From assembly GCA_963841435.1 (NCBI GenBank), contig CAWJCS010000003.1:960001-1024000 (forward strand): DNA of 64,000 nucleotides. Reading direction: 5' to 3'. Numbering within the stretch: position 1 is the stretch's first letter; every line of letters starts with the position of its first letter. Shown in pieces: positions 3,878-50,910 of the stretch. The position numbers and the translations under genes were made by a program. Source of the DNA: an uncultured delta proteobacterium. GTDB taxonomy: Bacteria > Myxococcota_A > Polyangia > Polyangiales > Polyangiaceae. The notes beneath the pieces are model-generated. The model was not told where the DNA came from. It was given only the letters and a program-made list of their open reading frames with translations, and did not search any database.

Positions 3878-5650
3878 ATGCTTCTCGTCAAGTGCGACCG
3901 CTGCGGGGCAAGCTACAAGCTCTCCGACGATCTGTTTCGTCGCAAGGCTGCAGGCTACGGCGTCGTCGTCACCTGTCGACGCTGCAAGCAAGAGATCCAC
4001 GTCGACGAGCATGGCGTGCGGTCAACGTCGGCGGCAGACGCGATGACCGAGTCCGCCGCACCCGACGCCGTGGGCGCAAAGCCGCCCCCGCGACCCCGAC
4101 CCGCTTCGCCCGAGCCGCCCAAGGTCGCGACACGTCCGCTGCCACCGCGAGTTGCCGGCGGACCGCCGCGCCCGCACACCGGCGCGACGGCCGCGGCGAT
4201 GGCACCGCGCCCCAACGTGAGCCGTGGACCCATGCGGCCCGCGCCGAAGCTCGTCGCGCTGTCGCCAGGGCTGCTCGGCGCCGACTCGCCGAGGCCGCCG
4301 CCCGTCCAGCCGAAGCCCGTCGCAATACAGCCGCCGACGCAGCCCGCAGCAACGGCCGAAACCTCGTCTCCAGACTCCGCGGCAGTGACGCCACGTCCGC
4401 CCTCCTCCGCCGCCGACTCGGAGATCCCGGTCGCATCGTCGGATTTCGTTTCGGATCCGGAGCCCACCGCCCCGCTGGACTCGAGTGACTTTCTCACCGA
4501 GTCGGCGCCGAAGGCCGGCGCCAAGCCGCGCCTGCCGGAAGCCCCGACCGGAAGACACCCGCCTTCGCTGATTTTTCACCCCGATCCCGAGCCCGAGCCG
4601 CCGAGCACGAGCAGCGCCCCCAAGCTCGAAAAGCTCGTCCACGATCTCGCGCCGCCGCGCAAAAAACCCGGCCACCCGCCGCGCCGCCAGCTTCCCTCCG
4701 GCGATCTGTCCGAGGACTTCATGAGCGCCGATCTCGGTTTCGAGGGGCCCGCGCTTCGACCGCCCGACGCCGACTCGCTCCTCAAGGCGCCGGTGTCGTC
4801 GCGTCCCGCCGCGAGCGCTGCTTCCGCCGCGAGCGCTGCTTCCACCGCAGCCGTCGCCAAGCCGCCCGAGTCGAAGCCCGCGGCAAACAAGTCGGCGCAG
4901 CCGGTCGCCGTCAAGAGCAAGACAGAGAGCGGCTCGGGTCGCGGTTGGATCGCGCTCGTCGCGCTCCTGCTGCTCGGCGTGGGTGGCTACGCGTTCCGCG
5001 ATCGCCTCGGGGGCGGCGGCTCGCGCGAGGCCGAGCCGACTCCCGAGGTCGCAGCCGCGCCCGAGCCCGCACCACCTCCCGAGCCTGCCGCGACAATCCC
5101 AGCCGCCGCCGAGCCCGCCGAGTCGGCACAAGCCGCGGCCGAGCCGGGCGCCGCCGAGCCCGCGACGGCGACGGCCGAAGCACCCAGCGAAGCGCCGGCT
5201 CCTGCGACGCCCGCCGCGACGTCCATCGCGCGCGCCGAGGCGAGCCCCCAAGCGACGGCCGCCACGCGCCCCGCGAGCGACACGACCGTCGCTGCCGCGC
5301 CTGCCGCCACGCAAAAGGCCACTGCAACGCCCACCACGGCCGCGCCGACGAACATCGAGCCGCGCCCGAGCGTCGGCAGCGAGCCCTTCAACACGGCGGC
5401 GGCACGCAGCGCGCTCGAAGCGGCGGCGGGGCAGGCCTCGAGCTGCCGCAAACCAGGAGATCCGAGCGGCATCGCCGTCGTTGTGATCACGTTCTCGCCG
5501 ACGGGCCGCGTCACCACGGCAACGGTCAACGGTCCGCCGTTCGCTGCCACGCAGACGGGCGGCTGCATCGCTTCGACGCTACGCAAGGCGCGCGTCCCCG
5601 CGTTCGCCGGCGACATGGTCACGGTCAAGAAGACGGTGACGATTCACTAG
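3878..5650 (+). CDS. MJ0042-type zinc-ribbon protein with Pro-rich linker, TM helix and C-terminal periplasmic TonB-like/AgmX-like domain
   Basis: N-terminal CDRC...CRRC, long Pro/Ala region, TM (WIALVALLLLGVGGY), C-terminal domain with a Cys pair (SSC...GGCI) typical of myxobacteria. Confidence 0.75.
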   Translation: MLLVKCDRCGASYKLSDDLFRRKAAGYGVVVTCRRCKQEIHVDEHGVRSTSAADAMTESAAPDAVGAKPPPRPRPASPEPPKVATRPLPPRVAGGPPRPHTGATAAAMAPRPNVSRGPMRPAPKLVALSPGLLGADSPRPPPVQPKPVAIQPPTQPAATAETSSPDSAAVTPRPPSSAADSEIPVASSDFVSDPEPTAPLDSSDFLTESAPKAGAKPRLPEAPTGRHPPSLIFHPDPEPEPPSTSSAPKLEKLVHDLAPPRKKPGHPPRRQLPSGDLSEDFMSADLGFEGPALRPPDADSLLKAPVSSRPAASAASAASAASTAAVAKPPESKPAANKSAQPVAVKSKTESGSGRGWIALVALLLLGVGGYAFRDRLGGGGSREAEPTPEVAAAPEPAPPPEPAATIPAAAEPAESAQAAAEPGAAEPATATAEAPSEAPAPATPAATSIARAEASPQATAATRPASDTTVAAAPAATQKATATPTTAAPTNIEPRPSVGSEPFNTAAARSALEAAAGQASSCRKPGDPSGIAVVVITFSPTGRVTTATVNGPPFAATQTGGCIASTLRKARVPAFAGDMVTVKKTVTIH

Positions 5651-5666
5651 GGTTCTTGGGAGGTCG

Positions 5667-6110
5667 AGCGGCGGCCGTTCCGGCGGTTTTGGTTTGGGCG
5701 CGGCCGCCCGCGACGATCGTGATCTGGTCTTCCAAGACCGAGATGTCGTTGCAAGAGGGGGCTCTCGTGCCGCGTGATCCCGCGACGTTGGGAGATCGGT
5801 CACTCGAGGCGAACCGCCCTGCGACTCTGGCAAGCCCAAGACAGCCGGCGGCCGTTCCGGCGGTTCTTTGGTTTGGGATGTGGCGACTCGTGACGATCGT
5901 GATCTGGTCTTCCAAGACCGAGATGTCGTTGCAAGAGGGGGCTCTCGTGCCGCGTGATCCCGCGACGTTGGGAGATCGGTCACTCGAGGCGAACCGCCCT
6001 GCGACTCTGGCAAGCCCAAGACAGCCGGCGGCCGTTCCGGCGGTTCTTTGGTTTGGGATGTGGCGACTCGTGACGATCGTGATCTGGTCTTCCAAGACCG
6101 AGATGTCGTT
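5667..6110. repeat. 180-bp tandem repeat, about 2.5 copies, with palindromic core
   Basis: 5712-5930 is identical to 5892-6110. The first partial copy (5667-5711) is diverged. Core GACGATCGTGATCTGGTCTTCCAAGACCGAGATGTCGTT occurs at 5712, 5892 and 6072. Confidence 0.97.
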
Positions 6111-9100
6111 TAGGGAAACGGCGGGCCCTGGGGGGCTGTGGTCGTCGATGTGAGGTCTTTGGGTGGGGCGTCGCGGGCCATGACCTGCGATGCCGTCGTC
6201 AGGATGTCGGGCTTGACGGCGATGTCGAGCTCTCGCCCGCTCACCGAGCCGTGGCACCCGGCGCAAAGGCCCCCGAACAGGTCGCGACGGAAGCTCTGCC
6301 GCGCGTCCTCACCTGGATAAAACTGCGTCTCCTCGCGCTGGGCGTGTGCGGACGGGCCACTGTCCGTCGCAAGCTTCACGCTCGCCTCGAGCATGACGGG
6401 CACGCCGCCCGGCACGATCATGCCCGCCGACGAATCGGCCTGCACCGGCACGTTGCCGAGGAACTGGCGGCGCGTGTAGAGCTGCCCGTACTTGTCGTTG
6501 ACGACGAAGCTGCCTCCCGACGCGAAATCGACCACGCCCTGATCCGGCGGCAAGCTCTCCCACACGCCGAGGCGCGGCCCCGAGGGGATGGGCCTGCCCG
6601 TTCTCGTGTTCTGGAACAGCAGGCTCTGGAGCACCCCGACGTCGAGAATCGTCACGCGCGCCTTCGTGCCCGGGCCGATGGTCGTCGCGGCGTTCGCCTC
6701 GTCGTAGCGCGAGCGAAAGACGCCCGAGTTCTGCTTCGCGTAGACGGCGGCGGGCCAGAGGCAATCGCGGCTCCCGTCCGAGACCAGCGTCGTGCGCCCG
6801 CCCGTTTCCGGATCGACGACCGCGATCTCGAACTTGCCGGAGAAGGCGTCGAGCGCCGTCACGGTGGGCGCGTAGCTCACGAGCAACCGGCCGTCGGGAA
6901 GCGGCGAGGGGTTGCGGTAGGCGCCCTGCGTGCCGGAGAGCTTGCCCGTCGCCGCGCCATCGACGAGCGCGAGGGAATGCTGGAAAAAGTCGGGGCTCGG
7001 CTTGCCGATCGCCGTCGGATCCACCGTGTAGTCGTCCGGATCGGCGCTCGCCTGATCGATGCCGATGCTGCGGTTGACGACCGCGAGCGCGCCCGCACCC
7101 CGCTCGGCGCCCTTGTCGCTCAGAATCATCGCGAGGTTCTTGTCGGCGAGCTCCACGACGTCGGTCAGCTGCGTAAAATCGATGGTGCTGCGCTGGCCGA
7201 AGAGCGGGTGGTAGTCGCCGCCGTCCAGATTGATGCGGCGACCCGCGAGCTGGTAGAAATCCGGCGCGCGCTTTTCGGTCGTGAAGATCACGCGCCCGTC
7301 GCGCATGAACGACGGCAAGAGCTCCTGGTTCGTGAGAAACGTCAACTGGCGGATCTTGCCGCCCGTCTCACGAACGTAGAGGTTGGCGTTCAGCTTGCTC
7401 GGATCGGCGGGCGTGCGCTGCGGGCCCGAGTAGCCGATCTCGTCGACGTTCGTGATGTTGCCACGCGTCGAGACGAAGACGATGCTCCCGTCGGGAGCGA
7501 AAGCGGGATCGAAGTTGTGGACGAGCGCGCCGTTCGCGAGCACCGGCCGGCCCGCGTCGTCGATGGGAGCGGCCTCGATGGCCGGATCGAGAGCACAGGC
7601 GCCGCCGTCAACGACGTAGACGTGGAACGGATCGTTTGCGCCGCTACGCGCCGCGAAGGCGATGCGATTGCCGTCCCAGGAGACGGCCGGGCGGCGCGCA
7701 TCCGTCGTCGCTGAGTCGAGACCGCAGAGAGCGCTCAGGCTCGTCTCGGCGCCGGTCGAGAGCGTGCCGTCGGTCGCGCGCGATAGCGCGACCTCGACGA
7801 CCTCGGCGCCGGGCCGGTAGGTCGCGAAATCCTGCGGCAAGTCCGCATCGGCGGGCGCCGGCGCGCGCACGAAGGCGAGCGCTCCGAGCGGCGTGCTCGT
7901 GCCCATGCGCGCCGTGCGTTCGAGCTCGAACCAGCGGCGCACCACGCAGTACGGCCGCTGCTCGTCGAGCGGCCCCGTCTCGGCGGCGACGGGATCGCAG
8001 ACGTCGTCGAGCTCGGCCGGTCCGAACAGATTGCCCCCGCGGTGGCGAATGCCGCCCGCCGATGGCGACAGGTTCTTCCTGATGAGCCGGCTCGCGTTGG
8101 GATCGGGCGACTCGAGCGCGAGCTGCTCCAGCGACAGCTCGTAGTTCTTGCGCGTCGCCGGCAGACCGAAGTGCCCACCCGCGCCGCCACGCAACCGGTA
8201 GTCGTGGAACATCGACGGCGAATGGCAGCCGAGGAACATGCAGCCGCGCTTGACGAGCATCGGCTGCACACGGTCGGCGAAGAACATGAAGCCGGGGTCG
8301 GTGGGCACGCGAGTGGGCCCGCCTTTTTCGGCGGCCCAGGCCTCGAGGGCCACGTAGCCTTGGTCGTCGCGCGAGGCGAACACGGTACCGCCCTCGTGGA
8401 AGCTGCCGCCCGCGTCGCGGGACAGGGCGCGCCTGAGCATCTCGCTCGACGACGTGTTCGCCGAAACGTAGTCGGCGAACACGAAGTAGTTCCAGCGCAC
8501 CTGCTCCGGGCTCGCCCCGCAGGTAAGGTGCATGACGTTGGCGCGCGCGCCGTGGCAGTTGCCGGCCGCACAGCGCCCCGCGATGACGGGCTCGACGCGC
8601 GAGACGAACGTGCCGTAGTCGGGAGCCGCGGGGTCGACCGAGCCGTCGAACGCGGGGTCGTTGCCGATCAGCTCCGTGCAGGGGTCGAGAGCGGGGCGTC
8701 GCTCGGCGGGCTTTGCGTTGTTCTCGGCGGCGCCGTTGTCGATCCAGGTCTGTAGTGTCGTGAAGGTCGCGCTCGTGAAGTCGATCTGCGAGCGGCCCGC
8801 ATGCGTCACGTCGGTCGTGATGAGCACCGGGGGCGCGTCGTCCCACTTCGACAGCGAGATCTTGTAGGGGGGGACGACCTTGAGCAGCAGCCCCGGCACA
8901 CCGTACGGCCCGTAGTCCACCAACAGGTCGCGCCGGAGGTTCAGCGTGTCGTAGGTCTCGGTGCTCAGGTTGCCGAACGCGTTGCCACCGGGGTCGGCGA
9001 CGTGGCAGCTCGAGCGCGTCGGGCTGATCGAGCAGTTGCCGTGCAGGACCGGACCGATCTTGCGATCGTAAAAGGTGGTGCGCTCGGGCTGCTCGTCCCG

Positions 9101-9160
9101 CTGGCAACCGATCCCACCGAGGCCCACGGCGAGGAGCACAAGGGCGCGCGCTCTCTTCAC
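6110..9160 (-). CDS. Multiheme c-type cytochrome lipoprotein with TolB/PD40-like beta-propeller and HzsA-like middle domain
   Basis: Lipobox GIGC. Heme-like motifs CSISPTRSSCH, CAAGNCH, CMFLGCH, CAGCH. Propeller blades PAVSWDG, PAFAPDG, PSFMRDG, PSPLPDG. LGNVPVQADSS..VPGGVP segment. Confidence 0.75.
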   Translation of the reverse strand: MKRARALVLLAVGLGGIGCQRDEQPERTTFYDRKIGPVLHGNCSISPTRSSCHVADPGGNAFGNLSTETYDTLNLRRDLLVDYGPYGVPGLLLKVVPPYKISLSKWDDAPPVLITTDVTHAGRSQIDFTSATFTTLQTWIDNGAAENNAKPAERRPALDPCTELIGNDPAFDGSVDPAAPDYGTFVSRVEPVIAGRCAAGNCHGARANVMHLTCGASPEQVRWNYFVFADYVSANTSSSEMLRRALSRDAGGSFHEGGTVFASRDDQGYVALEAWAAEKGGPTRVPTDPGFMFFADRVQPMLVKRGCMFLGCHSPSMFHDYRLRGGAGGHFGLPATRKNYELSLEQLALESPDPNASRLIRKNLSPSAGGIRHRGGNLFGPAELDDVCDPVAAETGPLDEQRPYCVVRRWFELERTARMGTSTPLGALAFVRAPAPADADLPQDFATYRPGAEVVEVALSRATDGTLSTGAETSLSALCGLDSATTDARRPAVSWDGNRIAFAARSGANDPFHVYVVDGGACALDPAIEAAPIDDAGRPVLANGALVHNFDPAFAPDGSIVFVSTRGNITNVDEIGYSGPQRTPADPSKLNANLYVRETGGKIRQLTFLTNQELLPSFMRDGRVIFTTEKRAPDFYQLAGRRINLDGGDYHPLFGQRSTIDFTQLTDVVELADKNLAMILSDKGAERGAGALAVVNRSIGIDQASADPDDYTVDPTAIGKPSPDFFQHSLALVDGAATGKLSGTQGAYRNPSPLPDGRLLVSYAPTVTALDAFSGKFEIAVVDPETGGRTTLVSDGSRDCLWPAAVYAKQNSGVFRSRYDEANAATTIGPGTKARVTILDVGVLQSLLFQNTRTGRPIPSGPRLGVWESLPPDQGVVDFASGGSFVVNDKYGQLYTRRQFLGNVPVQADSSAGMIVPGGVPVMLEASVKLATDSGPSAHAQREETQFYPGEDARQSFRRDLFGGLCAGCHGSVSGRELDIAVKPDILTTASQVMARDAPPKDLTSTTTAPQGPPFP

Positions 9161-9272
9161 GGTAGCCTCATCCTAACCGCCACGACGGCGCGTGGCCACA
9201 CGCGTCTCGCGCCACCGTCACGGCCCACGACCCGGAGGTCGTCCATCCACCGCGAGGGTGGCGTCAACGCAC

Positions 9273-10211
9273 CTACATCCGAGCGAGGGCGACCCGCGCG
9301 GCGTCACGCACGAAGGAATCGGGGTCGCCGAGGGCCGCGCGCACGGTGTCGAGAGCGCTGGGATCGGCAATCTGGCCGAGCGACCAGACGGCGGCCTTGC
9401 GCACGCTCGCGTCGGGTTCGTCGGCCGGTGTCGTGAGCGCCATCAGGCCGTCCACGGCGTCCCCGACGCGCATCGTGCCGATCGCGAGCACGGCAGCGCG
9501 CCTCACGTCGACCGAATCGTCGCCGATGCGTTCCACGACCGCTTCGACGTCATTGAACGCATTGACGCGCGTCGAGGCTTCGACGGCGGCGAGCCGCACG
9601 CGAGCGTCCTCGTCCGACATCGCGAACGACAGCTCGTCGTTCGGACCCACGCTGCTCAGGCGCTGCAACGCCCGAACCGAGGCCTCGCGCACCACGGGCG
9701 ACGCGTCGTTGCGAATCGCCGCGGCGAGGTACTTCGCTCCCGAGAGCGTCAAGAACTCGCCGAGCGCGCTCGCTGCGTGAGCACGGCGCGCTTCGGTCGC
9801 GGAGGCGTCACCGAGCGTCGCGGCGACCTCGGAGTACACCTGGCCGGGGCCGAACACGCCGAAGATGCGCCGCCTCAGCCACCAGGCCGCGATCTCGCGC
9901 GTCTTCGCGTTGCCGTCGTACAGCAACCCGGAGACCAGCGAGATGCACGAGAGGCACTCCATCTTCTCGCCGTGCTCGAGCACCTGCCAGATCTTGGTCG
10001 GTGCCACGACAGGCTTCAGATCCTTGCCGAACATCGACCGGATCACCTCCGGCGAGCTCACCGACTCGAGCGAGGAGCTTTGGAGGTTTTGGTAGACGGC
10101 GGCGCGCCCCGAGTGGGTGCTCTGATCGTTGTCCGCGTGCGCAGAGGACGAGACTGCCGCGAGGCCGAGTGCGGCCGCGCTCACCAGAAAGCGTCGAAGA
10201 ACGTTGTCCAT
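9273..10211 (-). CDS. Exported HEAT-repeat protein
   Basis: Signal peptide ending SAHA. Repeated D.S.VR..A..ALG motifs. N-terminal ECLSC. Confidence 0.85.
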   Translation of the reverse strand: MDNVLRRFLVSAAALGLAAVSSSAHADNDQSTHSGRAAVYQNLQSSSLESVSSPEVIRSMFGKDLKPVVAPTKIWQVLEHGEKMECLSCISLVSGLLYDGNAKTREIAAWWLRRRIFGVFGPGQVYSEVAATLGDASATEARRAHAASALGEFLTLSGAKYLAAAIRNDASPVVREASVRALQRLSSVGPNDELSFAMSDEDARVRLAAVEASTRVNAFNDVEAVVERIGDDSVDVRRAAVLAIGTMRVGDAVDGLMALTTPADEPDASVRKAAVWSLGQIADPSALDTVRAALGDPDSFVRDAARVALARM

Positions 10212-10238
10212 GGCTTTGCCTCAAATCTCCTTGGGGAC

Positions 10239-12566
10239 CTAGTACTGGCTCCCGCCGCCGCTGACGGGGTCGTTCGCGAACGGAACGAAGTCGGTGTTCT
10301 GACGGGAGTAGTACTGCCCGCCCATGTCGATGGCGCGAATCAGCTTGGCGAGCTCCTCGCGCGTCAGGCCCACCTCGGCCGCGTGATCCCAGCGCGTGCC
10401 CGCGATGGTGCCCTTGTTGTCGTCCACGGGGAACGGCTGGCCGAGCGCCCAGGCGTACTCGCTCGGGTTGCCCTCGGCCGCGACGTTGAGGACCTCGATC
10501 ATGCGGCTGTGGCGCGCATCGCTCGGCACGGCCCAGCGCGGCGGGACCGTACCGGTCACCATCGCACCGTCGAGGTTCATCTCCATCTGCAGTGCGGCCG
10601 GGTAGAACAGCGACACGTAGGAAGCCGGCCAGGCGCGCGTCTCGCGATCGTAGGTCACGGTGATCTCGCGGCTCGAGAGGTCGAGGCGCGGGATGTCGTA
10701 GGTGTCGGTGACCTCGCCGGTGACGGCGTCGGTCATCGTCACCTGGTAGAACTCCTGCGCCTTACTGCCGTTCGTGGTCTCGTTGTGGCACTGGACGCAC
10801 TTGGCATCGAGCAGCGCCTGGATCTCGTTCGCGTTGCCCGCCTTGGCGTAGGCCCAGGGGTACTCGACGCGATCGGCAACGGCGAGGTTGAACGGTTCGG
10901 GGTTGTTGCCCGCCGCGATCGTGAGCTGCTGGTCGGCGGGCAAGATCGCCTTGGTGCGATCCTCGTGGCAGCCGCCGCAGATGCGGCCCTCGCCCGGCAT
11001 CCCCTGAATCCAGGTGGTCTGGCTGCGAATCGACAGACCGAAGCGATCGATGGGCTGCAGGTGCATCGGCACGTAGGGCGGCACTTCCGCCATCCAGGAG
11101 CCGTCCTCGTTCACGCGAGCTTCGCCGAGCATCGCGGCTCCCTCGGCCATCGTCAGGCCGAACATCGTGGCGCCGGGGGCGGACTCGGTGGAGAAGCCCT
11201 CGATGATACGCACCTTCACGGCATCGCCGAGCGCGCGATCCATCGGCGTCCCGGCGGGAAACTGCGCGCCCTCCACGGTCTCACCGTGGCGCGCGTAAAG
11301 CGAGGTCTGCGTCACGTCGATCGAGCCGACGATGGCCGGCTTCGAGTCGTCAACCGTGTCCTGCCGGGTCGGCAGGATGGCGGGCTCGTCGCGCGCGACG
11401 ATCGGCCGGGCGTAGATCTCCCAGCTGCCTTCCCAGTTCTTCACGAGCTGGTTCTCGCCGCTCTTGGTGTCGTAGACGTAGATGCCGTAGTCGGGCGGCG
11501 TGAGCTCGAACTCCATCGTGTCGTTGACGACGCCCGGGGCCCACGAAACCAGCAAGCGACCGTCGGGCAGCATCGCGGGCGAGCGGTAACGACCGACGGG
11601 CGACGGGCCGTCACCCGTGGGCACGAGCGGCGTCACGAGCGAGAAGGCGTCCTCCTTTTCCTCGTCGACACGCAGCGCGTCAGCGGCGCTCCGGGCGTCG
11701 TAGCGGAACAACGAGCCCGCCTGGATGGTGTTCTCGCGATTGGTGACGACGCCGTAAAAGACGTTGGGCGTCGTGCCCTCGGTGACCTGCACGAGGGAGT
11801 TGCCCGGCTTGCCGTGCTGGCCGCCGAGCGCCGTCATCTGCGTGCAGTCCGGGTTCATCGCGAAGAGCTTCACGTCGTTGACGTTCTCGAGGTGCTCCCA
11901 GCGCGAGAAGCCCACGCGACCGTCGTCCATCGAGAAAAGCGTCACCGTGTGCGACAGATTCTGCGAGCAGAGCTTGCGATCCGCGTCGCCGCCGTCGAGC
12001 GAGACGGACCCGAGCTGGGTCACCACCTGCGAGTGGTTGTACTCGTCGGCGCGCGTGCCCATCTGCGTGTAGCCCTGGTTGGTCACGAACACGATGCGGT
12101 TGCCCGTCGACCAGATGGCATTGATGTCGTCGTAGTTACCGAAGGTGAGCTGGTGGATCTCGCTCTCGCCTTCGGCGAGGCTCGCCCAGTACACGTGGTA
12201 CCGATCGCTCGCCTTCGTCTTCATCGTGAAAAGGACGCGGGTCGCGTCGTAGCTCACGTCGACGCTCGAAACGTCCGCCTCGGGGTAGCCGGCGATGAGG
12301 TTCGTGATGTCGCCCGTCCTGAGATCGAGCACCTCGAGCCGCCCACCGGGCTCGTAGCGGCCGTAATCCATCACCTGGCCCATGCCGCCCGCGACGTCGA
12401 TGGCGGTCACGTCGCCGTTGCCGTCGAGCACGGTGTGCTGGCGCACGGCGTAGACGATCCGACCCACGTCGTTTTTGCCCTGATCCTCGGTGGACGTTTG
12501 CCCTGAGCACGCGGCGAGGCCGAGCAACGTCAGGATCGGGAGCGAGGTCTTGAGCGAGCGAACCAT
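10239..12566 (-). CDS. HzsA-related (hydrazine synthase alpha-like) diheme beta-propeller lipoprotein
   Basis: RBS TAAGGAG before ATG 12566. Lipobox LAAC. Propeller repeats, then LGEARVNEDGSWMAEVPPYVPMHLQPID...WIQGMPGEGRICGGCHE (HZS-alpha middle-domain pattern), then a second motif CVQCH. Confidence 0.82.
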   Translation of the reverse strand: MVRSLKTSLPILTLLGLAACSGQTSTEDQGKNDVGRIVYAVRQHTVLDGNGDVTAIDVAGGMGQVMDYGRYEPGGRLEVLDLRTGDITNLIAGYPEADVSSVDVSYDATRVLFTMKTKASDRYHVYWASLAEGESEIHQLTFGNYDDINAIWSTGNRIVFVTNQGYTQMGTRADEYNHSQVVTQLGSVSLDGGDADRKLCSQNLSHTVTLFSMDDGRVGFSRWEHLENVNDVKLFAMNPDCTQMTALGGQHGKPGNSLVQVTEGTTPNVFYGVVTNRENTIQAGSLFRYDARSAADALRVDEEKEDAFSLVTPLVPTGDGPSPVGRYRSPAMLPDGRLLVSWAPGVVNDTMEFELTPPDYGIYVYDTKSGENQLVKNWEGSWEIYARPIVARDEPAILPTRQDTVDDSKPAIVGSIDVTQTSLYARHGETVEGAQFPAGTPMDRALGDAVKVRIIEGFSTESAPGATMFGLTMAEGAAMLGEARVNEDGSWMAEVPPYVPMHLQPIDRFGLSIRSQTTWIQGMPGEGRICGGCHEDRTKAILPADQQLTIAAGNNPEPFNLAVADRVEYPWAYAKAGNANEIQALLDAKCVQCHNETTNGSKAQEFYQVTMTDAVTGEVTDTYDIPRLDLSSREITVTYDRETRAWPASYVSLFYPAALQMEMNLDGAMVTGTVPPRWAVPSDARHSRMIEVLNVAAEGNPSEYAWALGQPFPVDDNKGTIAGTRWDHAAEVGLTREELAKLIRAIDMGGQYYSRQNTDFVPFANDPVSGGGSQY

Positions 12567-12618
12567 GGTCAGACTCCTTACGGGGGCCCAGGGCAGGCTA
12601 AGGGCCACCCCCAGCTGT

Positions 12619-12634
12619 TGCAGCTCTTGGACCA
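12619..12634 (-). promoter_or_regulatory. Putative sigma54 -24/-12 promoter for the HzsA-like operon
   Basis: Minus strand TGGTCCAAGAGCTGCA = GG-N10-GC, about 50 bp upstream of the start. IHF-like AT-rich site TAACTATCTGAAAT just upstream (about 12650-12663). Confidence 0.6.
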
Positions 12635-12793
12635 CAAAACATTCCCGTGATTTCAGATAGTTACAAGCTGGCACGCGGGGCCCCGGCCCCCGAACGACGC
12701 CCCGAGCCGGGGGCGGGTTCCCCCAAGGTCGGAGCGCGCGGAGTCTCGGCCCGCTTTGCCGGCCGCGCCGTCGAGGGTAGTTGTTCGGCCGTT

Positions 12794-13459
12794 TTGGAAG
12801 GCGTGAAGTTCGACCAAGCCGGGCTCGTACCGGCGATCGCCCAGGATCGCCTCACGGGCGCCGTGCGCATGGTGGCGTGGATGAACCGCGAGGCGCTCGA
12901 GCTGACGCTCGCCACGGGGCGCGCCACTTTCTTCAGCCGTTCGCGCAACGCGCTCTGGGTGAAGGGCGAAACGAGCGGCCACACGCTCCACGTCTCGGAG
13001 ATCGTCGCCGATTGCGACGGCGACACCCTGCTCTTGCTCGTCGACCCCGAGGGGCCCTCTTGCCACACGGGGCGACCGACCTGCTTTTTCCGACCGCTGT
13101 CGACCGACGGCCTGCGCGAGGCGCCGCGCGAGTCGTTGCCCTACCTCTTCGAGCTCGAAGCCGTGATTGCGGAGCGCGCGAGCTCGACAGCCGAAAAGAG
13201 CTACACGCGCTCGCTCCTCGACAAGGGGGCCGCGGGCATCAATCCGAAGATCCTCGAGGAGGCCGGCGAGCTCGCCCAGGCGATCGAGGGCGAAAGTGAC
13301 GAGCGGGTGGCGAGCGAGGCCGCCGATCTGCTCTATCACGCGCTCGTGGGCCTGAAGCTCAGAGGCGTCTCACTGAGAGAGGTCGTCGAGAAGCTCGCGC
13401 TGCGCTCGCAGACCTCGGGCCACGCCGAGAAGGCCGCGCGCGCGCCCAAGCGAGACTGA
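12794..13459 (+). CDS. hisIE: Bifunctional phosphoribosyl-AMP cyclohydrolase / phosphoribosyl-ATP pyrophosphatase
   Basis: [31 protein letters not shown] and E.ADLLYH motifs. Start codon uncertain. Confidence 0.95.
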
Positions 13460-16496: not shown

Positions 16497-17254
16497 TCCG
16501 ACCGTTCCAGCTCGCCCTCGAACGGCACCCAGCGACCCTCCAGCAACCGCTCGTGCGGGACGAAGCGAGCCTTGTAACGCATACGCTCGCAGTCGCCGAT
16601 ATAAAGGCCAAGGTAGAGGTGCCGGAGGCCCAGGCTCTTGCAGAGCTCGACCTGCTTGAGGATCGAGTACGTGCCGATGCCGAGGCTCTCGAGCTCGGGA
16701 TCGTAGAAGCAGTAGACCGCCGACAGCGAATCCTCGGCCCGATCGACGAGCGCCACGCCGACGAGCTCTCCGTCAACGGTGTAGCGGAGCTCGAAGCTGT
16801 CGCAGCAGGTCATGACGAGAAACTGGCGATAGCCCGCCAGGTCGATCTCCTGGTCGCCGAGGCCGCGCAGCTGCTTGTGCCGGTTGTAGAGAGCGACGCG
16901 TCGCTCGTCGAGCAGCGGCGGCCCCATCTCCACCGAGAGCACGCGAGCGCCGCGAGCGAGCGCGCGGCGCTGCGAGCGGTTGGCCCGGAACTTTTGTACG
17001 TCGAGCCGGATGGGCTCGCAGGCGCGGCAGCTCGGGCACGCGGTACGGTAGAGGAACATGCCCTGGCGGCGGTCACCCGCCGCCAGGCGCTCGTCGAGCT
17101 CGTCGCCGGCGAGGCGTCGCGACGGCACGCGCAGGGGCAGCACGGCCGTACGACCCGTCACGTAGGGGCAATCGTGCGGCTCGTCGTACACGACGATCTC
17201 CGGGGGCGTCCCCGGGATCACGCGCGGGGGTACGACGGGGCTCGCGCGGGTCAC
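16493..17254 (-). CDS. Arginyl-tRNA-protein transferase family (Ate/Bpt)
   Basis: CPY, GDRRQG..YRTAC.SC.AC.PIR, LSAVYCFYDP, SLGIGTY, YLGLYI.DC..M.YK motifs. GTG start overlaps the cdd stop. Confidence 0.9.
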   Translation of the reverse strand: MTRASPVVPPRVIPGTPPEIVVYDEPHDCPYVTGRTAVLPLRVPSRRLAGDELDERLAAGDRRQGMFLYRTACPSCRACEPIRLDVQKFRANRSQRRALARGARVLSVEMGPPLLDERRVALYNRHKQLRGLGDQEIDLAGYRQFLVMTCCDSFELRYTVDGELVGVALVDRAEDSLSAVYCFYDPELESLGIGTYSILKQVELCKSLGLRHLYLGLYIGDCERMRYKARFVPHERLLEGRWVPFEGELERSE

Positions 17255-17661
17255 GGCTTCGGCTCCAACACGAACGGTTCGGGTAGAAGCGCCGCGAGCG
17301 TCATCGTCCGGCGACCGGAGGGGCCCGCCACGGTGACCTCCGCATCGTGCCCGAACTCGTGCAGCACCTGACGACAAAGACCGCACGGCATGACGAGCTC
17401 GGGGCCCTCCGCGTACACGGCCACGCGCTCGATGGCTCGTTCGCCTGCCGCGACCATCGCGGCCACGGCGGAGCGCTCCGCGCAGAGCGTCGCCCCGTAG
17501 GAGGCGTTCTCGACGTTGGCACCAACGTACGTCTCCCCGCTCTTGCTCACGATCGCGGCCCCCACGCTAAACCCGGAGTAAGGTGCATAAGCGTGCTCGC
17601 GCGCCCGGCGGGCCGCCTCGACGAGCGGATCGACGCGCTCGGAGGCGACGCCGTCAGTCAT
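17251..17661 (-). CDS. cdd: Cytidine deaminase
   Basis: AYAPYSGF.VGAA, GANVENASY, CAERSA and PCGLCRQ motifs. Confidence 0.95.
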   Translation of the reverse strand: MTDGVASERVDPLVEAARRAREHAYAPYSGFSVGAAIVSKSGETYVGANVENASYGATLCAERSAVAAMVAAGERAIERVAVYAEGPELVMPCGLCRQVLHEFGHDAEVTVAGPSGRRTMTLAALLPEPFVLEPKP

Positions 17662-18481
17662 GGCCGAGCTCCTGCTTCATGCGCTCGATCCAGCCGCCGA
17701 GCAGGCGGCCGAGACGATCGCGCGCCGCGGCGCCCGTCGCCTGCACCTCGGCGTGATCGAGCGGCCGATCGCCGAGGCCGGCAGCGACGTTGGTGACGAC
17801 GCTCACGGCGCCGACACGCACGGCGCATTGCCGGAGCGCGATCACCTCGAGCACGGTGCTCATGCCCACGGCATCGGCGCCGAGCGTGCGCAACATGCGG
17901 ACCTCGGCGGGTGTTTCGTAGCTCGGCCCGAGCAGCCCCGCGTAGACCCCCTCCTCGAGCGTGATCCCCTCGGCTCGGGCGGCGTCGCGTGCGAGACCCG
18001 CCAGTATGGGATCGTAGGCAGCCGTCATGTCGGGAAAGCGCGGCAGCCCCTGGCTGGGACCGACGAGCGGATTCATCCCCGTCAGGTTGACGTGATCCGT
18101 CACGAGGAGCAACGCACCCGGCGAAAGCCCCGAGCGAATGCCTCCCGATGCGTTGGTGAGCAGGACGACGCGACAGCCGAGCTCCCCGAGCAAGCGGACG
18201 CCGAACACGACCTCTTCGGGCGCATGACCCTCGTAGAGGTGGACCCGCCCCGACAGGCACGCGACGGGCACCCCGCGAAGCCGCCCCGCGACGACCTCGC
18301 CCGCGTGGCCCGGCACCTTCGGGACGGGCATGCCCGGCACGTCGGCGTACGGCACCTGCTTTGCCCCCTCGAGGGCGGTGCCGAACGCCCCGAGCCCCGA
18401 GCCGAGCACGACGCCCACGAGCGGCCGTTCGCCGAGCCTTTCACCGAGAATTCGAGCGGCTGCGGCAGGCCTGGCGCTCAT
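17654..18481 (-). CDS. punA: Purine nucleoside phosphorylase (trimeric PNP I type)
   Basis: VLGSGLG, GRVHLYEG, TNASGG, GPSYETPAE, VGMST and VTN motifs. Confidence 0.92.
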   Translation of the reverse strand: MSARPAAAARILGERLGERPLVGVVLGSGLGAFGTALEGAKQVPYADVPGMPVPKVPGHAGEVVAGRLRGVPVACLSGRVHLYEGHAPEEVVFGVRLLGELGCRVVLLTNASGGIRSGLSPGALLLVTDHVNLTGMNPLVGPSQGLPRFPDMTAAYDPILAGLARDAARAEGITLEEGVYAGLLGPSYETPAEVRMLRTLGADAVGMSTVLEVIALRQCAVRVGAVSVVTNVAAGLGDRPLDHAEVQATGAAARDRLGRLLGGWIERMKQELGHD

Positions 18482-18550
18482 GCCGGCTCCAAGCTATGGT
18501 CCCGCCCCCTGTCGCCCAGCCCGATAAGGTGCGGGCAGCGAGAACCCTGC

Positions 18551-18892
18551 ATGGCCAGCAAGTTCGCCCAGTTCATCGAAGATAACAAGATCGACCCGCG
18601 CCGCCTGCTCGTGGTCTCCAAGCGCATCGAGCGCCTCGGTCCCCCCGACCGTCGCATCAAGCTCGACAAAGCGCGCGCCAAGAGCGCGGGCGCAACTCCT
18701 GCGCCGGCCGAAGGCGAGAAGGTGGAGCCGAAAAAGCCGAAGTCCGGCAGGCCCGTGACGCCGCGGCTGTTCGACGCCGCCAAGAACGGCAAGCCCGTGG
18801 CCGCGCCCGCCAAGACCCGCCTTCTTCGCGCCGTCAACGGCGTCCTCACGCAGAAGAAGAAGCCGGCCGTCGATTTGCGCACGCTCTTCTGA
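18551..18892 (+). CDS. Small Lys/Arg-rich hypothetical protein
   Basis: ATG 18551 (MASKFAQF...), high-GC3 codon usage, 113 aa, very basic. Confidence 0.7.
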   Translation: MASKFAQFIEDNKIDPRRLLVVSKRIERLGPPDRRIKLDKARAKSAGATPAPAEGEKVEPKKPKSGRPVTPRLFDAAKNGKPVAAPAKTRLLRAVNGVLTQKKKPAVDLRTLF

Positions 18893-19073
18893 GCGTTCGG
18901 CCGCGCGCCGCGGCAGACAAAGGCTGAAAGATCCGGGAGGCCCGTGCATCCAACCTCCCGTGGCCCCGGCCTTCGCCCTTGCCTACCCGCTCCTACCCGC
19001 GCGGCTCACTCCGTTCGGTCCGCCGGTGGGCGCGGACGAGCGGGGAGCGCGTGCGGGCGCTAGTCTTGGACGG

Positions 19074-19700
19074 GTGAGCGTTTCCGGGGACCTCCTGTCA
19101 CGCTGCCAAGCTTCGGACCCTGCCGCCTTTCGCGAGCTGTTCGAGACGCACCGCGTCGAGGTCACGCGTCTCGTGTTCCGCATGACGCACGGCAGCGGCG
19201 ACCTCGAGGATCTCGTGCAAGAGGTGTTCGTTCAGGTCCATCGCAGCCTGCCGTCGTTCCGCAGCGAGGCGCGCCTCTCGACGTGGATTCTTCGTATCGC
19301 CGTGAATGTCGTGCTCATGCACCGTCGCGCGGCGCGCACGCGCCCGCTGATGCTCGTGAGCAAGGGCGAGCCGTCGCTCATCGACGACGCAGGGCCGCCC
19401 GACGAGCAGGTGTCTCGGCGGCGCCGCATCGAAGCGCTCTATCGCATCGTCGATCGTTTGAGCGAGAAGAAGCGCACGGTGTACGTGCTGCACGAGCTCG
19501 AGGGTCTGTCACCCCATGAGATTGCCAAGATCCTCGGGTCACCCGTGCTGACCGTCCGCACGCGGCTCTTCTACGCGCGGCGCGAGGTGCTCTCCCTGCT
19601 CTCGAGCGAGCCCGCGCTCCGCGCCATCGCCGACGGCCTCGGAGCGCCGAGCTCCGATCGACCCGGTGCGGGACGCGAGCCGCACAAGGAGCCCGCTTGA
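19074..19700 (+). CDS. ECF sigma-70 factor
   Basis: EDLVQEVF, F...A.LSTW..RIAVN, region 4 LHELEGLS..EIA.IL...TVRTRL. Confidence 0.92.
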   Translation: MSVSGDLLSRCQASDPAAFRELFETHRVEVTRLVFRMTHGSGDLEDLVQEVFVQVHRSLPSFRSEARLSTWILRIAVNVVLMHRRAARTRPLMLVSKGEPSLIDDAGPPDEQVSRRRRIEALYRIVDRLSEKKRTVYVLHELEGLSPHEIAKILGSPVLTVRTRLFYARREVLSLLSSEPALRAIADGLGAPSSDRPGAGREPHKEPA

Positions 19701-20803
19701 ACCGCCAGCGCGACGCCCGGGCGCTCCGCGCCGTCCTCGAGGAGGCGCGTGCCGAGCGCCCCCCCGAGATCGACATCGCACGCATCGAGCGCACGCTCGA
19801 GAGCTTGCCCCCGCGCTCGGTACCACGGCCGTCGCTGCATTTCGGCAGGCGACTCTGGCTCGTGCCTGCCGCCGTGGCCGCGCTCGCGGGGCTCGTCTAC
19901 CTGGTGCGACCCGCGCCCATCTCGGCGCCCGTGCCCGCGCCGAGCGCAGCGAGCGAGCGTCGCGGAGCGACCGACGGCGACACGCTCGCGCCCGGCAGCG
20001 TCGTCGCGGCGGCGGACGAGCCGCGCGTGGTCGCACACGCCGGGCGCGTCACGTGGACGCTCGAGCCGGGGTCGCGCGCCACGCTCATCAGCGCCGGCGA
20101 CATGGTGACGGTGCGCCTCGAACGCGGCGCGGTGTCGGCGCGCGTCGTGCCGAGCCTGCGTCCGGAATCGTTCGCGATCGAGGCGCGCGAGCTGCGCGTC
20201 GCCGCCCACGGCACGGCGTTTCGCGTGGCGCTCGCCGCCGACAGCGTCAACGTCGCCGTGACCGAGGGCACGGTGCTCGTCGGCCCGCGCAGCCAGCCCG
20301 GCACGGGGCATCTGCTCACGAGCCCGGCCGCGGAGCACTTCGCGCCGCCCCACCCCGGCGACGAGCCCGCCCCGAAGCGCCCGAGCGCGCGCGCGCCCGT
20401 CTCCACGGCGCCGAGCGCCCCCGAAGAACCCTCCGCCAACAGAGAGGGGAGCGAGGCGGCCCGGAAGAGCGACGCCGACACGCACGAACCCGGCCACGTC
20501 GCCGAGCGCCCGGTGGTGCCCGAGCCGTCGCCGGGAGCCGTTGACACCGCGACACTCCACCTCATCGAGCTCACGTCCGCATGCTTCCGGCAGCGCACCG
20601 TCGCGGCCCAACTGCCGAGCGGCGCCGCGCAGACCACGCTGCGCTACCAGTCGCTCCCGAACGGCTCGATCGCGGGCGTGCAATTTTCGCCACGGCTGCC
20701 GAGCGGCGTCGAGCTCTGCGTTCGTGACGGCGCGCGCTCGCTGCACGCGCCCGTCTCACCGAACGGCCTCGAAGTATCGCGCGCCATCGTCCTGTCGCGC
20801 TGA
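19697..20803 (+). CDS. FecR-domain anti-sigma factor
   Basis: Overlaps the sigma gene. TM helix, then RLERG, V.AHGT.F.V and V.VTEG.V FecR motifs. Confidence 0.85.
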   Translation: MNRQRDARALRAVLEEARAERPPEIDIARIERTLESLPPRSVPRPSLHFGRRLWLVPAAVAALAGLVYLVRPAPISAPVPAPSAASERRGATDGDTLAPGSVVAAADEPRVVAHAGRVTWTLEPGSRATLISAGDMVTVRLERGAVSARVVPSLRPESFAIEARELRVAAHGTAFRVALAADSVNVAVTEGTVLVGPRSQPGTGHLLTSPAAEHFAPPHPGDEPAPKRPSARAPVSTAPSAPEEPSANREGSEAARKSDADTHEPGHVAERPVVPEPSPGAVDTATLHLIELTSACFRQRTVAAQLPSGAAQTTLRYQSLPNGSIAGVQFSPRLPSGVELCVRDGARSLHAPVSPNGLEVSRAIVLSR

Positions 20804-26166: not shown

Positions 26167-26920
26167 GTGAACTTTCTTGGATCCATAACGATAGGCGTGG
26201 TGGTTCTGGGGATGGCGTACGGCTGTGGCTCCGACGACGACAACCGCGGTGGCTCGTCGGGCGGCATGGGCGGCGGAGAGGGGGGCGGTCCCTCCAATCT
26301 TCCCGAAGGCTGTGACTTTCTCGCCGGGAAGGAGCCTGCACCCGTCTGCGGCAGCGGTGTTGCTTGCGAGCAGGTTCGGAGCGAGACAACGGCGCGCTTT
26401 TCAGCTGAACCTCGCGGACTCCTTTACCGACGACGACGGGAACGACGTGCCCTACTCCGAAGAGGAGCTCGGAATGCGCCTCCAATGCTTGACGAGCTGG
26501 CTGACGGGAATTGGTTTGGAGCCGGAGGTGCTGACGAATCTCCACATGGTGATCGTGAATGCGACCTTCGCAGTGCTCGAGCCCGTGCTCGAGAGCGCCG
26601 TGCTCGACAGGTACTGGATCGACTGCGAAGGCGGCGACTGCAGCTACTGCCACGAGCTGGACGAGTCCGATTGTGCCGAAGATGCATTCTGTGCGCCGTA
26701 CCTCGGGTGGCCGATCGACGAAGAACGCCAGTGCCTGAACCAGGCGTCGTTTGCGACCTGCGCTGGCGCCCACCAGGGGTGCGCTACCGCCGCCAGCCTC
26801 CAACGCGACGAAAACGGTCAGTGCTGGTGGTTTCCCAATCGCTGCGTGCTCGTCCACCTGCAGAGCGACGCGACCTGCGGGGACGAGGAAGCCGATCCTC
26901 CGCCGGATTGCGGCAGCTGA
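26167..26920 (+). pseudogene. Cys-rich lipoprotein, frameshifted near 26395
   Basis: Lipobox AYGC and Gly linker in one frame. The Cys-rich C-terminal part (QCWWFPNRC) is in another frame. Confidence 0.65.
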
Positions 26921-44136: not shown

Positions 44137-44484
44137 ATGACGCCCCTCGGCCACTACGTCGTCGAGACACTCGTCATGTTGACGGGCGTGGCCGCGCTCG
44201 CGGTGCTCCTGCTCACCATTGGCCGGCGCCTGGGCGTGGGGCGACCGAGTGGGCCGCTCGAGCTCGTCGGGCGCCTGCCCCTCGATGGGCGCCGGGCGGT
44301 GTATCTGGTGCGCGTCGGAGAAACGGTGTACGTCGTCGGGGCGAGCGAAAGCGGCCTGACGAAGCTCGGGGAAGTGGACAAAGATGGGCTCGAGCTACCC
44401 AAGGGAGACAAGGTTCCTCGGTCGTTCGAGAGCGTGCTCGGGCGCGTGCTTTCGAAGCCCGCTTCGCCTCCGCCCGGTGGCTAG
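44137..44484 (+). CDS. fliO: FliO/MopB-like protein
   Basis: N-terminal TM, then L.LVGRLPLD.RRAVYLVRVG....VVG.SE pattern; overlaps the next gene. Confidence 0.75.
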   Translation: MTPLGHYVVETLVMLTGVAALAVLLLTIGRRLGVGRPSGPLELVGRLPLDGRRAVYLVRVGETVYVVGASESGLTKLGEVDKDGLELPKGDKVPRSFESVLGRVLSKPASPPPGG

Positions 44485-45220
44485 CGCGCTCCTCGCGTTG
44501 ACCGGTGCGCTGCTGAGCCCGGCGCTCGCGCGAGCTGCCGAGCCGCCACTCGCCCCCGACCTCCTGTCGCGCCCGCTCACACTGATTGTCGCGATCGGCC
44601 TTGCGACGCTGTTGCCGTTCGCGTTCATGACGTTGACGGCGTTCGTGAAGATTTCCACGGTGCTGCAGATCGTCCGCGGCGCCATCGGCGCGCAGAGCGT
44701 CCCGACGAACACGGTGATCATGGCCTTCGCCGGCGCGCTCACCGTGCTCGCCATGGCTCCCGTGGGCTCGCGCATCGCCGAGCGCGCCAAGCCGCTCTTG
44801 GGCGCCGATGCCATGAGCGACAGCGCGCACTTCATCGGAGGCATGCTGGAGGCCACGGGCGAGCCGCTCCGCGCGTTCCTCAAGGCGAACGCCAGCGCGC
44901 GCGAGCGTGCTCGCTTCTACGAAATCGCGCGCACGGCCCGCCCCGAACCGGAACGCGCCGGGGTCGGCCGCGACGACATCGTCGTGCTCGTACCGGCCTT
45001 CGTCGTGAGCGAGCTCATCGAAGCCTTCGCGCTCGGGTTCGCCCTCTACCTGCCGTTCCTCGTGATCGACCTCGTGGTCTCGAACGTCCTTCTGGCCCTC
45101 GGCATGCAGATGATGACGCCCGGGCAAGTGAGCTTGCCGTTCAAGCTCCTCTTGTTCGTCGCGATCGACGGCTGGGGGCTGCTCGCGCAGGCGCTCGTGA
45201 CCGGGTACAAGGCCGGTTGA
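44477..45220 (+). CDS. sctR: Type III export apparatus FliP/SctR family protein
   Basis: TAFVKI..V..IVR.AIG.Q.VP, LVPAF.VSEL..AF..GF..YLPFLVIDLVVSNVLLALGM.M and LPFKLLLFV..DGW motifs. Confidence 0.9.
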   Translation: MASALLALTGALLSPALARAAEPPLAPDLLSRPLTLIVAIGLATLLPFAFMTLTAFVKISTVLQIVRGAIGAQSVPTNTVIMAFAGALTVLAMAPVGSRIAERAKPLLGADAMSDSAHFIGGMLEATGEPLRAFLKANASARERARFYEIARTARPEPERAGVGRDDIVVLVPAFVVSELIEAFALGFALYLPFLVIDLVVSNVLLALGMQMMTPGQVSLPFKLLLFVAIDGWGLLAQALVTGYKAG

Positions 45221-47484: not shown

Positions 47485-47506
47485 GCGGGATCCTTGGAGA
47501 CTGACC

Positions 47507-49351: not shown

Positions 49352-49379
49352 CCCCTTTTTTTTTCAGGCAGAAGGCAAC

Positions 49380-50570: not shown

Positions 50571-50699
50571 GCGTCGCGCCCGGCGCCTTTCGCCGCGCCG
50601 GGCGTGCTCGCCTGGACCACGGCGTCGACCCACGGGCGCGGTGTGAACGCGATGCGCGGCGCTCGCTCACGGCGGCGACGAAAGCACGGTCGGGCCTCG

Positions 50700-50910
50700 A
50701 AGGTGCGACTCGCACCGGTGGCCGCCGACCTAGACTACCAAGGCGTTGCCTGGGTCGGTTTCAACCTGAACCAGGAGCTCGACGCCGACACCTCGGGGAC
50801 GGTGCTCGTCCGCTCGACGAGCATCACCATCGGCTACACGAACAGCGGCGGCTCCCCCCTGCGCGTGCAGCTCGGCGGCCCGAACGCCTCGACTCTCGAG
50901 TCGGATCGTC
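50700..50910 (+). pseudogene. Probable remnant of a carbohydrate-binding-type domain
   Basis: Protein-like island DYQGVAWVGFNLNQ...TNSGGSPLRVQLGGPNA...DR without a convincing start or end; recognised from memory of myxobacterial domains only. Confidence 0.45.

Follow-up and report, generated by a model that had tools for sequence, protein, structure and literature searches.

What does a protein with the architecture of HzsA, a subunit of hydrazine synthase (HZS), do in a myxobacterium? The question is raised by a three-gene locus in DNA from a member of the Polyangiaceae (Myxococcota), lying in a window, the whole stretch of 64,000 nucleotides of contig CAWJCS010000003.1 analysed here, to which all positions refer. 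The genes P1, encoding an HzsA-family lipoprotein, P2, encoding a secreted HEAT-repeat protein, and P3, encoding a second HzsA-like lipoprotein, follow one another in this order on the minus strand, with intergenic gaps of 27 and 112 bp. HZS consists of HzsA, HzsB and HzsC; heme gamma-I is regarded as the site where nitric oxide (NO) is reduced, and heme alpha-I as the site of its condensation with ammonium, according to the account of the enzyme in PMC12607021. The answer proposed here, to which we give about an even chance, is that the trio represents a branch of the HzsA superfamily specific to Myxococcota, one that functions with neither HzsB nor HzsC, as a periplasmic c-type heme enzyme. 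In our reading, this HEAT-partnered, HzsBC-free form is a new variant within a superfamily that has already been surveyed computationally, and hydrazine synthesis by P1 and P3 is, from their sequences, unlikely.

P1, an HzsA-Type Lipoprotein

With a propeller, the middle domain and a pair of c-heme motifs, P1 has the whole architecture of HzsA. A first-pass annotation of this DNA had described the protein as HzsA-like with two CxxCH motifs, and this description holds strongly. A profile built from 56 members of the P1 family matches HzsA of Kuenenia (PDB 5c2v_A) with an E-value of 1.4e-38, in four stretches that span the length of the protein and take in the propeller and middle domain, the two heme motifs and the helices at the C-terminus. 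The AlphaFold2 model of P1 (pLDDT 86.6, pTM 0.87) has 5c2v as its best Foldseek match in the PDB (E 3.3e-29, TM 0.65/0.65, about 16% identity), with TolB far behind. The cysteines and histidines of the two motifs (C530, C533 and H534; C590, C593 and H594) are invariant across the 56 sequences of alignment A3. The N-terminus bears what we take to be a lipobox, judged by eye against the lipobox pattern; its C20 is invariant in alignment A1 and at least 90% conserved in alignment A3. The HZS_alpha profile proposed earlier as a check on the HzsA-like proteins (PF18582, gathering cut-off 26.6 bits) recognizes P1 (54.5 bits) but not P3, for which there is no match at E<=10; a P3 orthologue, P0331, reaches 13.1 bits.

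The two heme sites differ in how closely they follow those of HzsA. His728 of P1, with a conservation of at least 90% in A3, shares a column with alpha-His772 and may be its counterpart, as the candidate distal ligand of heme 2. After the first CxxCH, the profile alignment of P1 with HzsA contains a two-residue gap exactly at Ser590/Tyr591; these HzsA residue numbers were mapped by counting along the printed alignment with an offset of +27 between PDB and paper numbering. Tyr591 is described as the unusual proximal ligand of heme alpha-I in the passages on this site in PMC12607021 and PMC12758564. Because the tyrosine ligand is missing, heme 1 of P1 is most likely an ordinary His-ligated c-heme, as far as the alignment can tell. 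The region of the zinc-binding alpha-Cys303 of HzsA lies outside the stretches aligned to the P1 profile.

P2 and the Predicted P1-P2 Complex

P2 scores 86.1 bits against the Pfam family HEAT_2 (cut-off 27.7), and by eye its N-terminus resembles a Sec signal ending in AHA. Residues 128-311 have profile matches in the PDB to alphaRep, deoxyhypusine hydroxylase, YibA and phycocyanobilin lyase (E 7.6e-79 to 3e-7); the matches listed all begin at residue 128 or later, past a family-specific N-terminal block with ten residues that do not vary among 44 sequences (L78, E79, E82, C86, C89, R105, W110, W111, R113 and R115). An Atlas feature search with residues 60-135 led to HEAT clusters. The prokaryotic PBS-lyase-type HEAT family is known for protein binding. 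P2 is like its members (alphaRep scaffolds, CpcE/F, YibA, deoxyhypusine hydroxylase) over residues 128-311, but differs from them in being secreted, in having an N-terminal block of its own, marked by WWLRRR and an invariant CxxC, and in scores far under the cut-offs of the NCBIfam lyase equivalogs (CpcE, 24.3 against 330; NblB, 35 against 300).

The complex of P1 (residues 25-775) with P2 (residues 65-312) was predicted from own alignments, with three controls. The ipSAE values were 0.88, 0.87 and 0.83, as against 0.00 for the best of the three controls, with a partner pLDDT of 83-89, 208-215 contacts and at least 50% contact agreement between runs. The ipSAE mark was calibrated on solved complexes, 116 of 157 of which reach it, and on mismatched pairs, 2 of 215 of which do so, a calibration that is only rough for own alignments. 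Binding of P1 and P2 is supported by this model, with clean controls. In the prediction, the interface takes up the whole concave face of P2, N-terminal block included, with E79, C89, W110 and R113 in its confident part; on the P1 side it consists of propeller loops, residues 460-471 of the middle domain and residues 609-659 and 759-765 of the C-terminal domain. P1 and P2 probably form a stable, membrane-tethered heterodimer in the periplasm, because the predicted clasp interface is very large. Of the heteromeric complex of all three proteins put forward in the first-pass annotation, it is the P1-P2 part that the prediction supports; membership of P3 would be hypothetical. To our knowledge, no complex between HzsA and a HEAT protein has been solved.

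P2 could, by analogy, be a dedicated maturation factor or chaperone of P1 and P3 and no permanent subunit, for example by holding the apoproteins for heme attachment at unusual C-x4-CH and C-x8-CH motifs (described below for P3), much as HEAT-type bilin lyases attach tetrapyrroles to cysteines. Its membership of the PBS-lyase/alphaRep HEAT family, with weak matches to CpcE, NblB and a phycocyanobilin lyase structure, would fit such a role, as would the closeness of the invariant C86-x2-C89 to the predicted interface and the position of the gene between two genes for heme-motif proteins. However, the interface is predicted on folded P1 and its size is more suggestive of a stable subunit, loci that lack P3, and with it the unusual motifs, still have P2, and the lyase scores are far too low. 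We know of no HEAT-type heme c lyase, and a chaperone role is considered unlikely.

P3, a Diverged Paralogue with N-Terminal Repeats

Profile comparison shows P3 to be a diverged paralogue of P1 that retains the propeller and middle domain along with the first heme motif: the two families align with a probability of 99.9% in hhalign (E 5.6e-35), residues 377-1011 of P3 to residues 10-567 of P1. The resemblance of P3 to HzsA, claimed from the outset, is upheld through P1 in this way and, weakly, by P3 itself, the AlphaFold2 model of which (pLDDT 85.5) has 5c2v_A as its best Foldseek match (E 1.6e-20, TM 0.36/0.46). In Pfam, P3 matches PD40 alone (residues 543-567). The N-terminus has a lipobox-like GIGC, the cysteine of which (C19) is invariant in 57 of 57 sequences. 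The CAGCH motif is the single CxxCH of the whole protein, and the C-terminus follows 46 residues after it; P3 therefore has no heme alpha-II domain. The protein database carries the tag PF26549.1 on some P3 orthologues, including the window's own P0274; a local Pfam scan of the P3 orthologues did not report this family even at E<=10.

The first 420 residues of P3 are made up of three repeats (D1-D3) of about 125-135 residues, each with a helix, then Cys-x(n)-Cys-His, and later an invariant histidine. The spacing is x4 in D2 and D3 in all 57 sequences; in D1 it is x8 in 52 and x6 in five. D2 and D3 are clearly alike in hhalign (97.7%, E 1.8e-12), D1 and D2 less so (67.7%) and D1 and D3 hardly at all (8%). 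The repeats match the C-terminal heme-2 domain of P1 weakly (0.8-26% probability), and their descent from that domain is therefore not shown. An Atlas feature search with residues 26-420, which provides leads only, gave unnamed clusters in its first three rows (score 0.92-0.93); clusters in which 16-28% of the members carry Cytochrom_C, PSCyt1 or Paired_CXXCH_1 scored 0.90-0.92.

Distant members of the family provide further insight into these repeats. The heme-2 position holds C-x4-CH in five of them (P0151, P0165, P0233, P0263 and P0264), three of which (P0233, P0263 and P0264) have it in the HzsA-like context 'DFRRD..P(I/V)I..(K/R)C....CH ... VEWVD(L/I)GAQW', and a module resembling D2 stands at the C-terminus of P0151 and P0168. 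The P3 repeats may be heme modules, because C-x4-CH occurs at the heme alpha-II site of distant members and D2-like modules at their C-termini. CX4CH is among the documented attachment motifs for heme c, together with CX3CH, CX11CH, CX15CH and CX17CH, in the motif list of PMC11492766. D2 and D3 share this non-canonical motif, with heme binding only putative here, whereas the CX8CH and CX6CH spacings of D1 fall outside that list (PMC11492766). The term 'CX8CH' does not occur among the literature matches listed.

Conservation of the Gene Set

A word-indexed protein search with P1 gave 986 matches, with PF18582 present in all 120 listed, and an exhaustive search found 2547 clusters at E<=1e-3, of which 90 reached E<=1e-30; the superfamily is therefore large. 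In a genome scan with P1, the best 80 of 490 related stretches (L001-L080) were analysed; all are from Myxococcota, mostly labelled Polyangiaceae. P1, P2 and P3 lie on one strand in 69 of these 80 loci. Four loci end past P2 and two past P1; P2 follows P1 in 78 of the 78 with room for it, and P3 comes after in 69 of 74. In these relatives, P1 and P2 are always neighbours, and the survey of synteny that the first-pass annotation had called for found the trio to be conserved. For alignment, A3 was built from 41 of the 75 clean P1 loci and 14 representatives, A4 from 43 of the 77 P2 loci and A2 from all 56 clean P3 loci; P3 of L014 and L076 and P1 of L047 had been left out because of internal stops.

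Other genes stand within or beside the set in some loci. Inserts between trio genes are found in L010 and L075, and in L012 (3888-6248) and L013 (13220-15601) there is a gene of about 790 codons for an LMF1-like protein (lipase maturation factor), on the minus strand. In L044, L046, L054 and L055, a thiolase gene stands where P3 would, followed in L046 and L054 by a GDSL lipase gene.

Adjacency could also be no more than gene order inherited within one family, with three independent proteins. The flanks are shared among the 80 loci (hisIE in 64, the response regulator in 61), and much of the synteny is therefore simple relatedness. However, the pair or trio is kept in loci with altered flanks: in the most divergent ones, L070-L080, hisIE is present in one of 11 (L072) and the gene set is still there, and a well-supported clade of seven (L073, L074, L076-L080) has different neighbours, among them, in 7/7 loci, a DsbD-type thiol-reductant exporter gene (DsbD_TM plus thioredoxin) divergent from P1. 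The predicted binding of P1 and P2, set against the controls, is a further argument against independence, which is held to be highly improbable.

The same clade has other genes near the set. A gene for a 183-residue multi-helix membrane protein with a YFY.FHGDW motif stands 3' of P3 in five loci, followed by DUF4398 and OmpA/TSP3-family genes, with the OmpA-family gene in L073, L076, L078 and L079; Lgt is encoded nearby in L076 and L079. Examples are the genes at 8446-10176 (minus strand) and 16500-18751 (plus strand) of L079, and none of these neighbours is present in the window.

Relation to TolB and to Hydrazine Synthase

The propeller fold of P1 and P3 is common to TolB and PD40 proteins (Foldseek E of about 1e-10 to 1e-12), and P3 has its PD40 match. 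Some sources label P3 orthologues 'TolB family protein' or 'PD40 domain-containing protein'. Could the two lipoproteins be envelope or ligand-binding proteins of the TolB type, with heme motifs that are structural, sensory or vestigial and without a catalytic redox role? TolB is the next-best structural match after HzsA for both models, these database names point the same way, and an OmpA-family gene lies downstream in the four divergent-clade loci named above. However, P1 and P3 have a middle domain and heme motifs, all absent from TolB, and show no match to the TolB N-terminal domain, and there is no OmpA/Pal gene at the window's own locus. The cysteines and histidines of the heme motifs are all invariant across 56-57 sequences, down to 25-43% identity; the motifs are therefore not vestigial. 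Membership of the TolB family itself was rejected, as P3 scores 16.9 against a cut-off of 343 for TIGR02800, and a TolB-type role is regarded as quite unlikely.

The likeness of P1 to HzsA of Kuenenia stuttgartiensis (5C2V chain A) extends to the full-length, three-part architecture, the order of the two c-heme motifs and the histidine in the alpha-His772 column. P1 differs from it in being a lipoprotein, in sharing only about 16% identity, in lacking the proximal Tyr591 (the Ser590/Tyr591 gap) and in its Polyangiaceae-like host; P3 departs further from the full architecture, as it lacks the heme alpha-II domain. Kuenenia HzsA works with HzsB and HzsC, whereas the conserved, predicted binding neighbour of P1 is a HEAT protein. 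The first-pass annotation had noted that hzsB and hzsC are missing, and within the 64-kb window this is confirmed. Pfam finds no cytochrome c peroxidase/MauG-type or other cytochrome family among the 42 other frames, and CxxCH is found, among stop-to-stop frames of at least 150 residues, only in P1 (two), P3 (one) and a frame at 26195-26917 (one), so that P1 alone has two or more. Membership of hydrazine synthase was rejected on the basis of the scores against NCBIfam NF052339 (hydrazine_alpha equivalog, cut-off 800), which are 48.7 bits for P1 and 25.8 bits for P3, the missing Tyr591 and the lack of HzsBC in the window.

Two studies from 2025 have dealt with HzsA homologues outside anammox bacteria. 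Hagglund et al. described homologues in Planctomycetota, Desulfobacterota and other groups, without key residues (PMC12758564), and a cold-seep study reported HzsA-like genes in 10 phyla (PMC11828985); Myxococcota are not among the phyla listed in the HzsA passage of the latter. The annotation had called such proteins uncharacterised, which is qualified by these computational surveys, although none of the homologues is biochemically characterised in the relevant parts of either paper (PMC12758564; PMC11828985). The two disagree on function: Hagglund et al. rejected hydrazine synthesis for the non-anammox homologues because the tyrosine is missing (PMC12758564), whereas the HzsA passage of the cold-seep study counts homologues as anammox potential (PMC11828985). 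P1 is like the homologues of clades I-IV and of the cold seeps in being exported and in lacking Tyr591, and most of those are described as having two heme motifs. Its TM of 0.65 is on a par with the 0.66-0.67 given for the best RefSeq homologues, and it has a histidine in the alpha-His772 column, a residue that clade I homologues are reported to lack (PMC12758564). The gene neighbourhood is different. In clades I-IV, the homologue is reported to be encoded beside a fused beta-gamma homologue, joined in clades I-III by an FG-GAP protein (PMC12758564), whereas P1 has a HEAT protein and a paralogue with C-x4/x8-CH motifs next to it; no beta-gamma-like or FG-GAP Pfam family was found in the window, and the two genes downstream of P1 are P2 and P3. 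The words 'Myxococc', 'Polyangi' and 'HEAT' have no occurrence in the main text of PMC12758564, and there is no paper on such a system among the literature matches listed for hydrazine synthase with myxobacterial names.

Nitrogen chemistry of the HZS kind (formation of an N-N bond, or conversion of hydroxylamine or NO), with P3 or an unlinked protein in place of HzsBC, would be in keeping with the full-length homology of P1 to HzsA, its two heme sites and the histidine in the alpha-His772 column, and P3 would add putative electron-transfer modules. It is nevertheless thought to be very unlikely. There is no HzsB/C-like, peroxidase/MauG-type or multiheme gene in the 64 kb, NF052339 is missed by a wide margin, and P1 has its gap at the very trait that Hagglund et al. 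used to reject hydrazine synthesis in the homologues they describe (PMC12758564). The nitrogen chemistry that the first-pass annotation had suggested does not find a basis here: nothing in the analysis points to it, and the tyrosine heme ligand of the HzsA site is absent from P1.

A Tentative Model

The reading preferred here, that of an HzsA-type periplasmic heme enzyme without HzsBC, may be pictured as follows. P2, a secreted HEAT solenoid, would clasp P1 over a very large interface and would stand, as a conserved neighbour, where anammox bacteria and clade I-IV clusters have an HzsBC-type partner. Catalysis would take place at the His-ligated heme 1 of P1, which a bis-His heme 2 would feed. 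P3 would carry out the same kind of chemistry, with its three N-terminal repeats in place of the C-terminal heme-2 domain; these C-x4/x8-CH modules, each with an invariant distal histidine, would be its own electron wire. The invariance of all heme-motif cysteines and histidines and, in the divergent clade, the DsbD-type exporter gene beside P1 are in keeping with these heme assignments. Peroxide, NO, hydroxylamine or some other small redox-active molecule able to diffuse would be the most likely substrate, and the product would be something other than hydrazine.

Several observations weigh against this model. The predicted interface is not enriched in conserved residues: it takes in 18 of the 58 conserved residues of P2, against 53 of its 190 other residues (odds ratio 1.16, p 0.38), and just two of the 96 conserved residues of P1, in an alignment with distant members that may lack P2. 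For P3, the earlier description of the N-terminal domains as cytochrome-like stands as regards the invariant C-x(n)-CH motifs, but residues 26-420 have no match in Pfam and residues 161-420 none among PDB sequences, in both cases at E<=10. The pLDDT of the P3 model is below 50 at residues 46-50, in the motif loop of D1, and at 310-320, which include the second cysteine and the histidine of D3, and the two cysteines and two histidines of the repeats could equally well form a metal site. P3 is absent within 3.6-9 kb in L044, L046, L054, L055 and L058, which have P1 and P2 and are spread over two or more branches of a FastTree of P1 with weak support, and the opposite-strand LMF1-like gene parts P2 from P3 in L012 and L013. 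All 80 loci come from metagenome-assembled genomes, and none of the neighbouring genes among the window frames scanned with Pfam hints at a substrate.

The Locus and Its Surroundings

The features of the locus are listed in Table 1. The coordinates, frames and N-termini bear out the original description of three co-directional genes for exported proteins. Third-position GC in the three frames is 0.88-0.90, as expected for real genes in this window of 68-72% GC, with a GC content of 66-73% across its first 20 kb. The longest frame of P1 begins at 12674; the ATG at 12566 gives the 775-residue form, which is 100% identical to the database protein P0004. The P1-P2 and P2-P3 intergenic stretches contain no sigma-70-like promoter and no minus-strand terminator, and Rfam has no match over 5400-13000. 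The trio is flanked by unrelated housekeeping genes, with hisIE and a response-regulator gene upstream, divergent, and genes for a zinc-ribbon protein and Cu-oxidase_4 downstream, convergent.

Table 1. Positions of the P1, P2 and P3 genes and of the features of their products in the window (aa, amino acids).
Feature	Position	Strand	Remarks
P1	10239-12566	-	lipoprotein of the HzsA family (775 aa) with propeller, HZS_alpha middle domain and two c-heme motifs
P1 signal peptide with lipobox L-A-A-C (C20)	12507-12566	-	judged by eye
P1 HZS_alpha middle-domain match, aa 469-535	10962-11162	-	PF18582, 54.5 bits, E 1.7e-14, cut-off 26.6
P1 heme-1 motif CGGCH, C530-H534	10965-10979	-	equivalent of HzsA heme alpha-I; aligns with HzsA CSGCH
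P1 heme-2 motif CVQCH, C590-H594	10785-10799	-	equivalent of heme alpha-II; aligns with HzsA 'DIQPILDAKCAMCH' segment
P1 His728	10383-10385	-	in HzsA alpha-His772 column; candidate distal ligand of heme 2; A3 conservation at least 90%
P2	9273-10211	-	HEAT-repeat protein (312 aa), secreted
P2 family-specific N-terminal block, aa 78-118	9858-9980	-	LEHGE..EC..C, WWLRRR; invariant residues
P3	6110-9160	-	second HzsA-like lipoprotein, 1016 aa
P3 repeat D1, aa 26-160	8681-9085	-	C43-x8-C52-H53 and H120, all invariant in 57 sequences
P3 repeat D2, aa 161-285	8306-8680	-	C197-x4-C202-H203 and H255 (HEGG), invariant
P3 repeat D3, aa 286-420	7901-8305	-	C307-x4-C312-H313 and H373 (HRGG), invariant
P3 propeller and divergent middle domain, aa 421-965	6266-7900	-	aligned to P1 propeller and middle domain
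P3 CAGCH, aa 966-970	6251-6265	-	in 57/57 sequences; aligns with P1 CGGCH (heme 1)

Between the convergent zinc-ribbon gene and the stop codon of P3, the gap is filled by a tandem repeat of 180 bp (5687-6110; about 2.4 copies, the second 94% identical). Each unit contains a GC hairpin with a T-run on the plus strand and a palindrome, GGTCTTCCAAGACC; the repeat has no match in Rfam, and its 39-mer is found nowhere else in the window. The sole further CxxCH frame of the window encodes a protein of 231 residues (26225-26920, plus strand) that belongs to no Pfam family. Other genes on the plus strand include a gene for an ECF-type sigma factor followed by a FecR-domain gene (18960-20803), a FliP-family export-apparatus gene (44384-45220, 193.7 bits), which stands without any further flagellar or type III family in the frames scanned, and a same-strand run (46747-51974) of genes for an ABC-2 permease, ABC_transp_aux/DUF7088, DUF4340, a small frame and a protein with a molybdopterin oxidoreductase domain.

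Significance for the HzsA Superfamily

The locus reveals, in Myxococcota, a large, well-conserved branch of the superfamily in which the HzsA module is accompanied by a HEAT protein instead of a beta-gamma partner, and has been duplicated into a form, P3, with its own putative electron wire. In its boldest form, which is a long shot, the P1-P2 heterodimer would constitute, together with P3, a new class of periplasmic heme enzyme, with an HzsBC-free, HEAT-capped HzsA module, heme in P3 bound through an undescribed C-x8-CH motif, and N-O or N-N chemistry (turnover of hydroxylamine or NO) in aerobic soil myxobacteria. A C-x8-CH heme site, if real, would add a further spacing to the attachment motifs known so far. 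The origin of HzsA, the signature protein of anammox, is a matter of debate; an N-O or N-N enzyme of this kind, if confirmed, would show the role of the HzsA module before its recruitment to anammox. Should the heme content be borne out, and with it the complex predicted for P1 and P2, the HzsA module would become accessible to study outside slow-growing anammox enrichments, and HZS_alpha matches in metagenomes would have to be treated with caution as markers of anammox.

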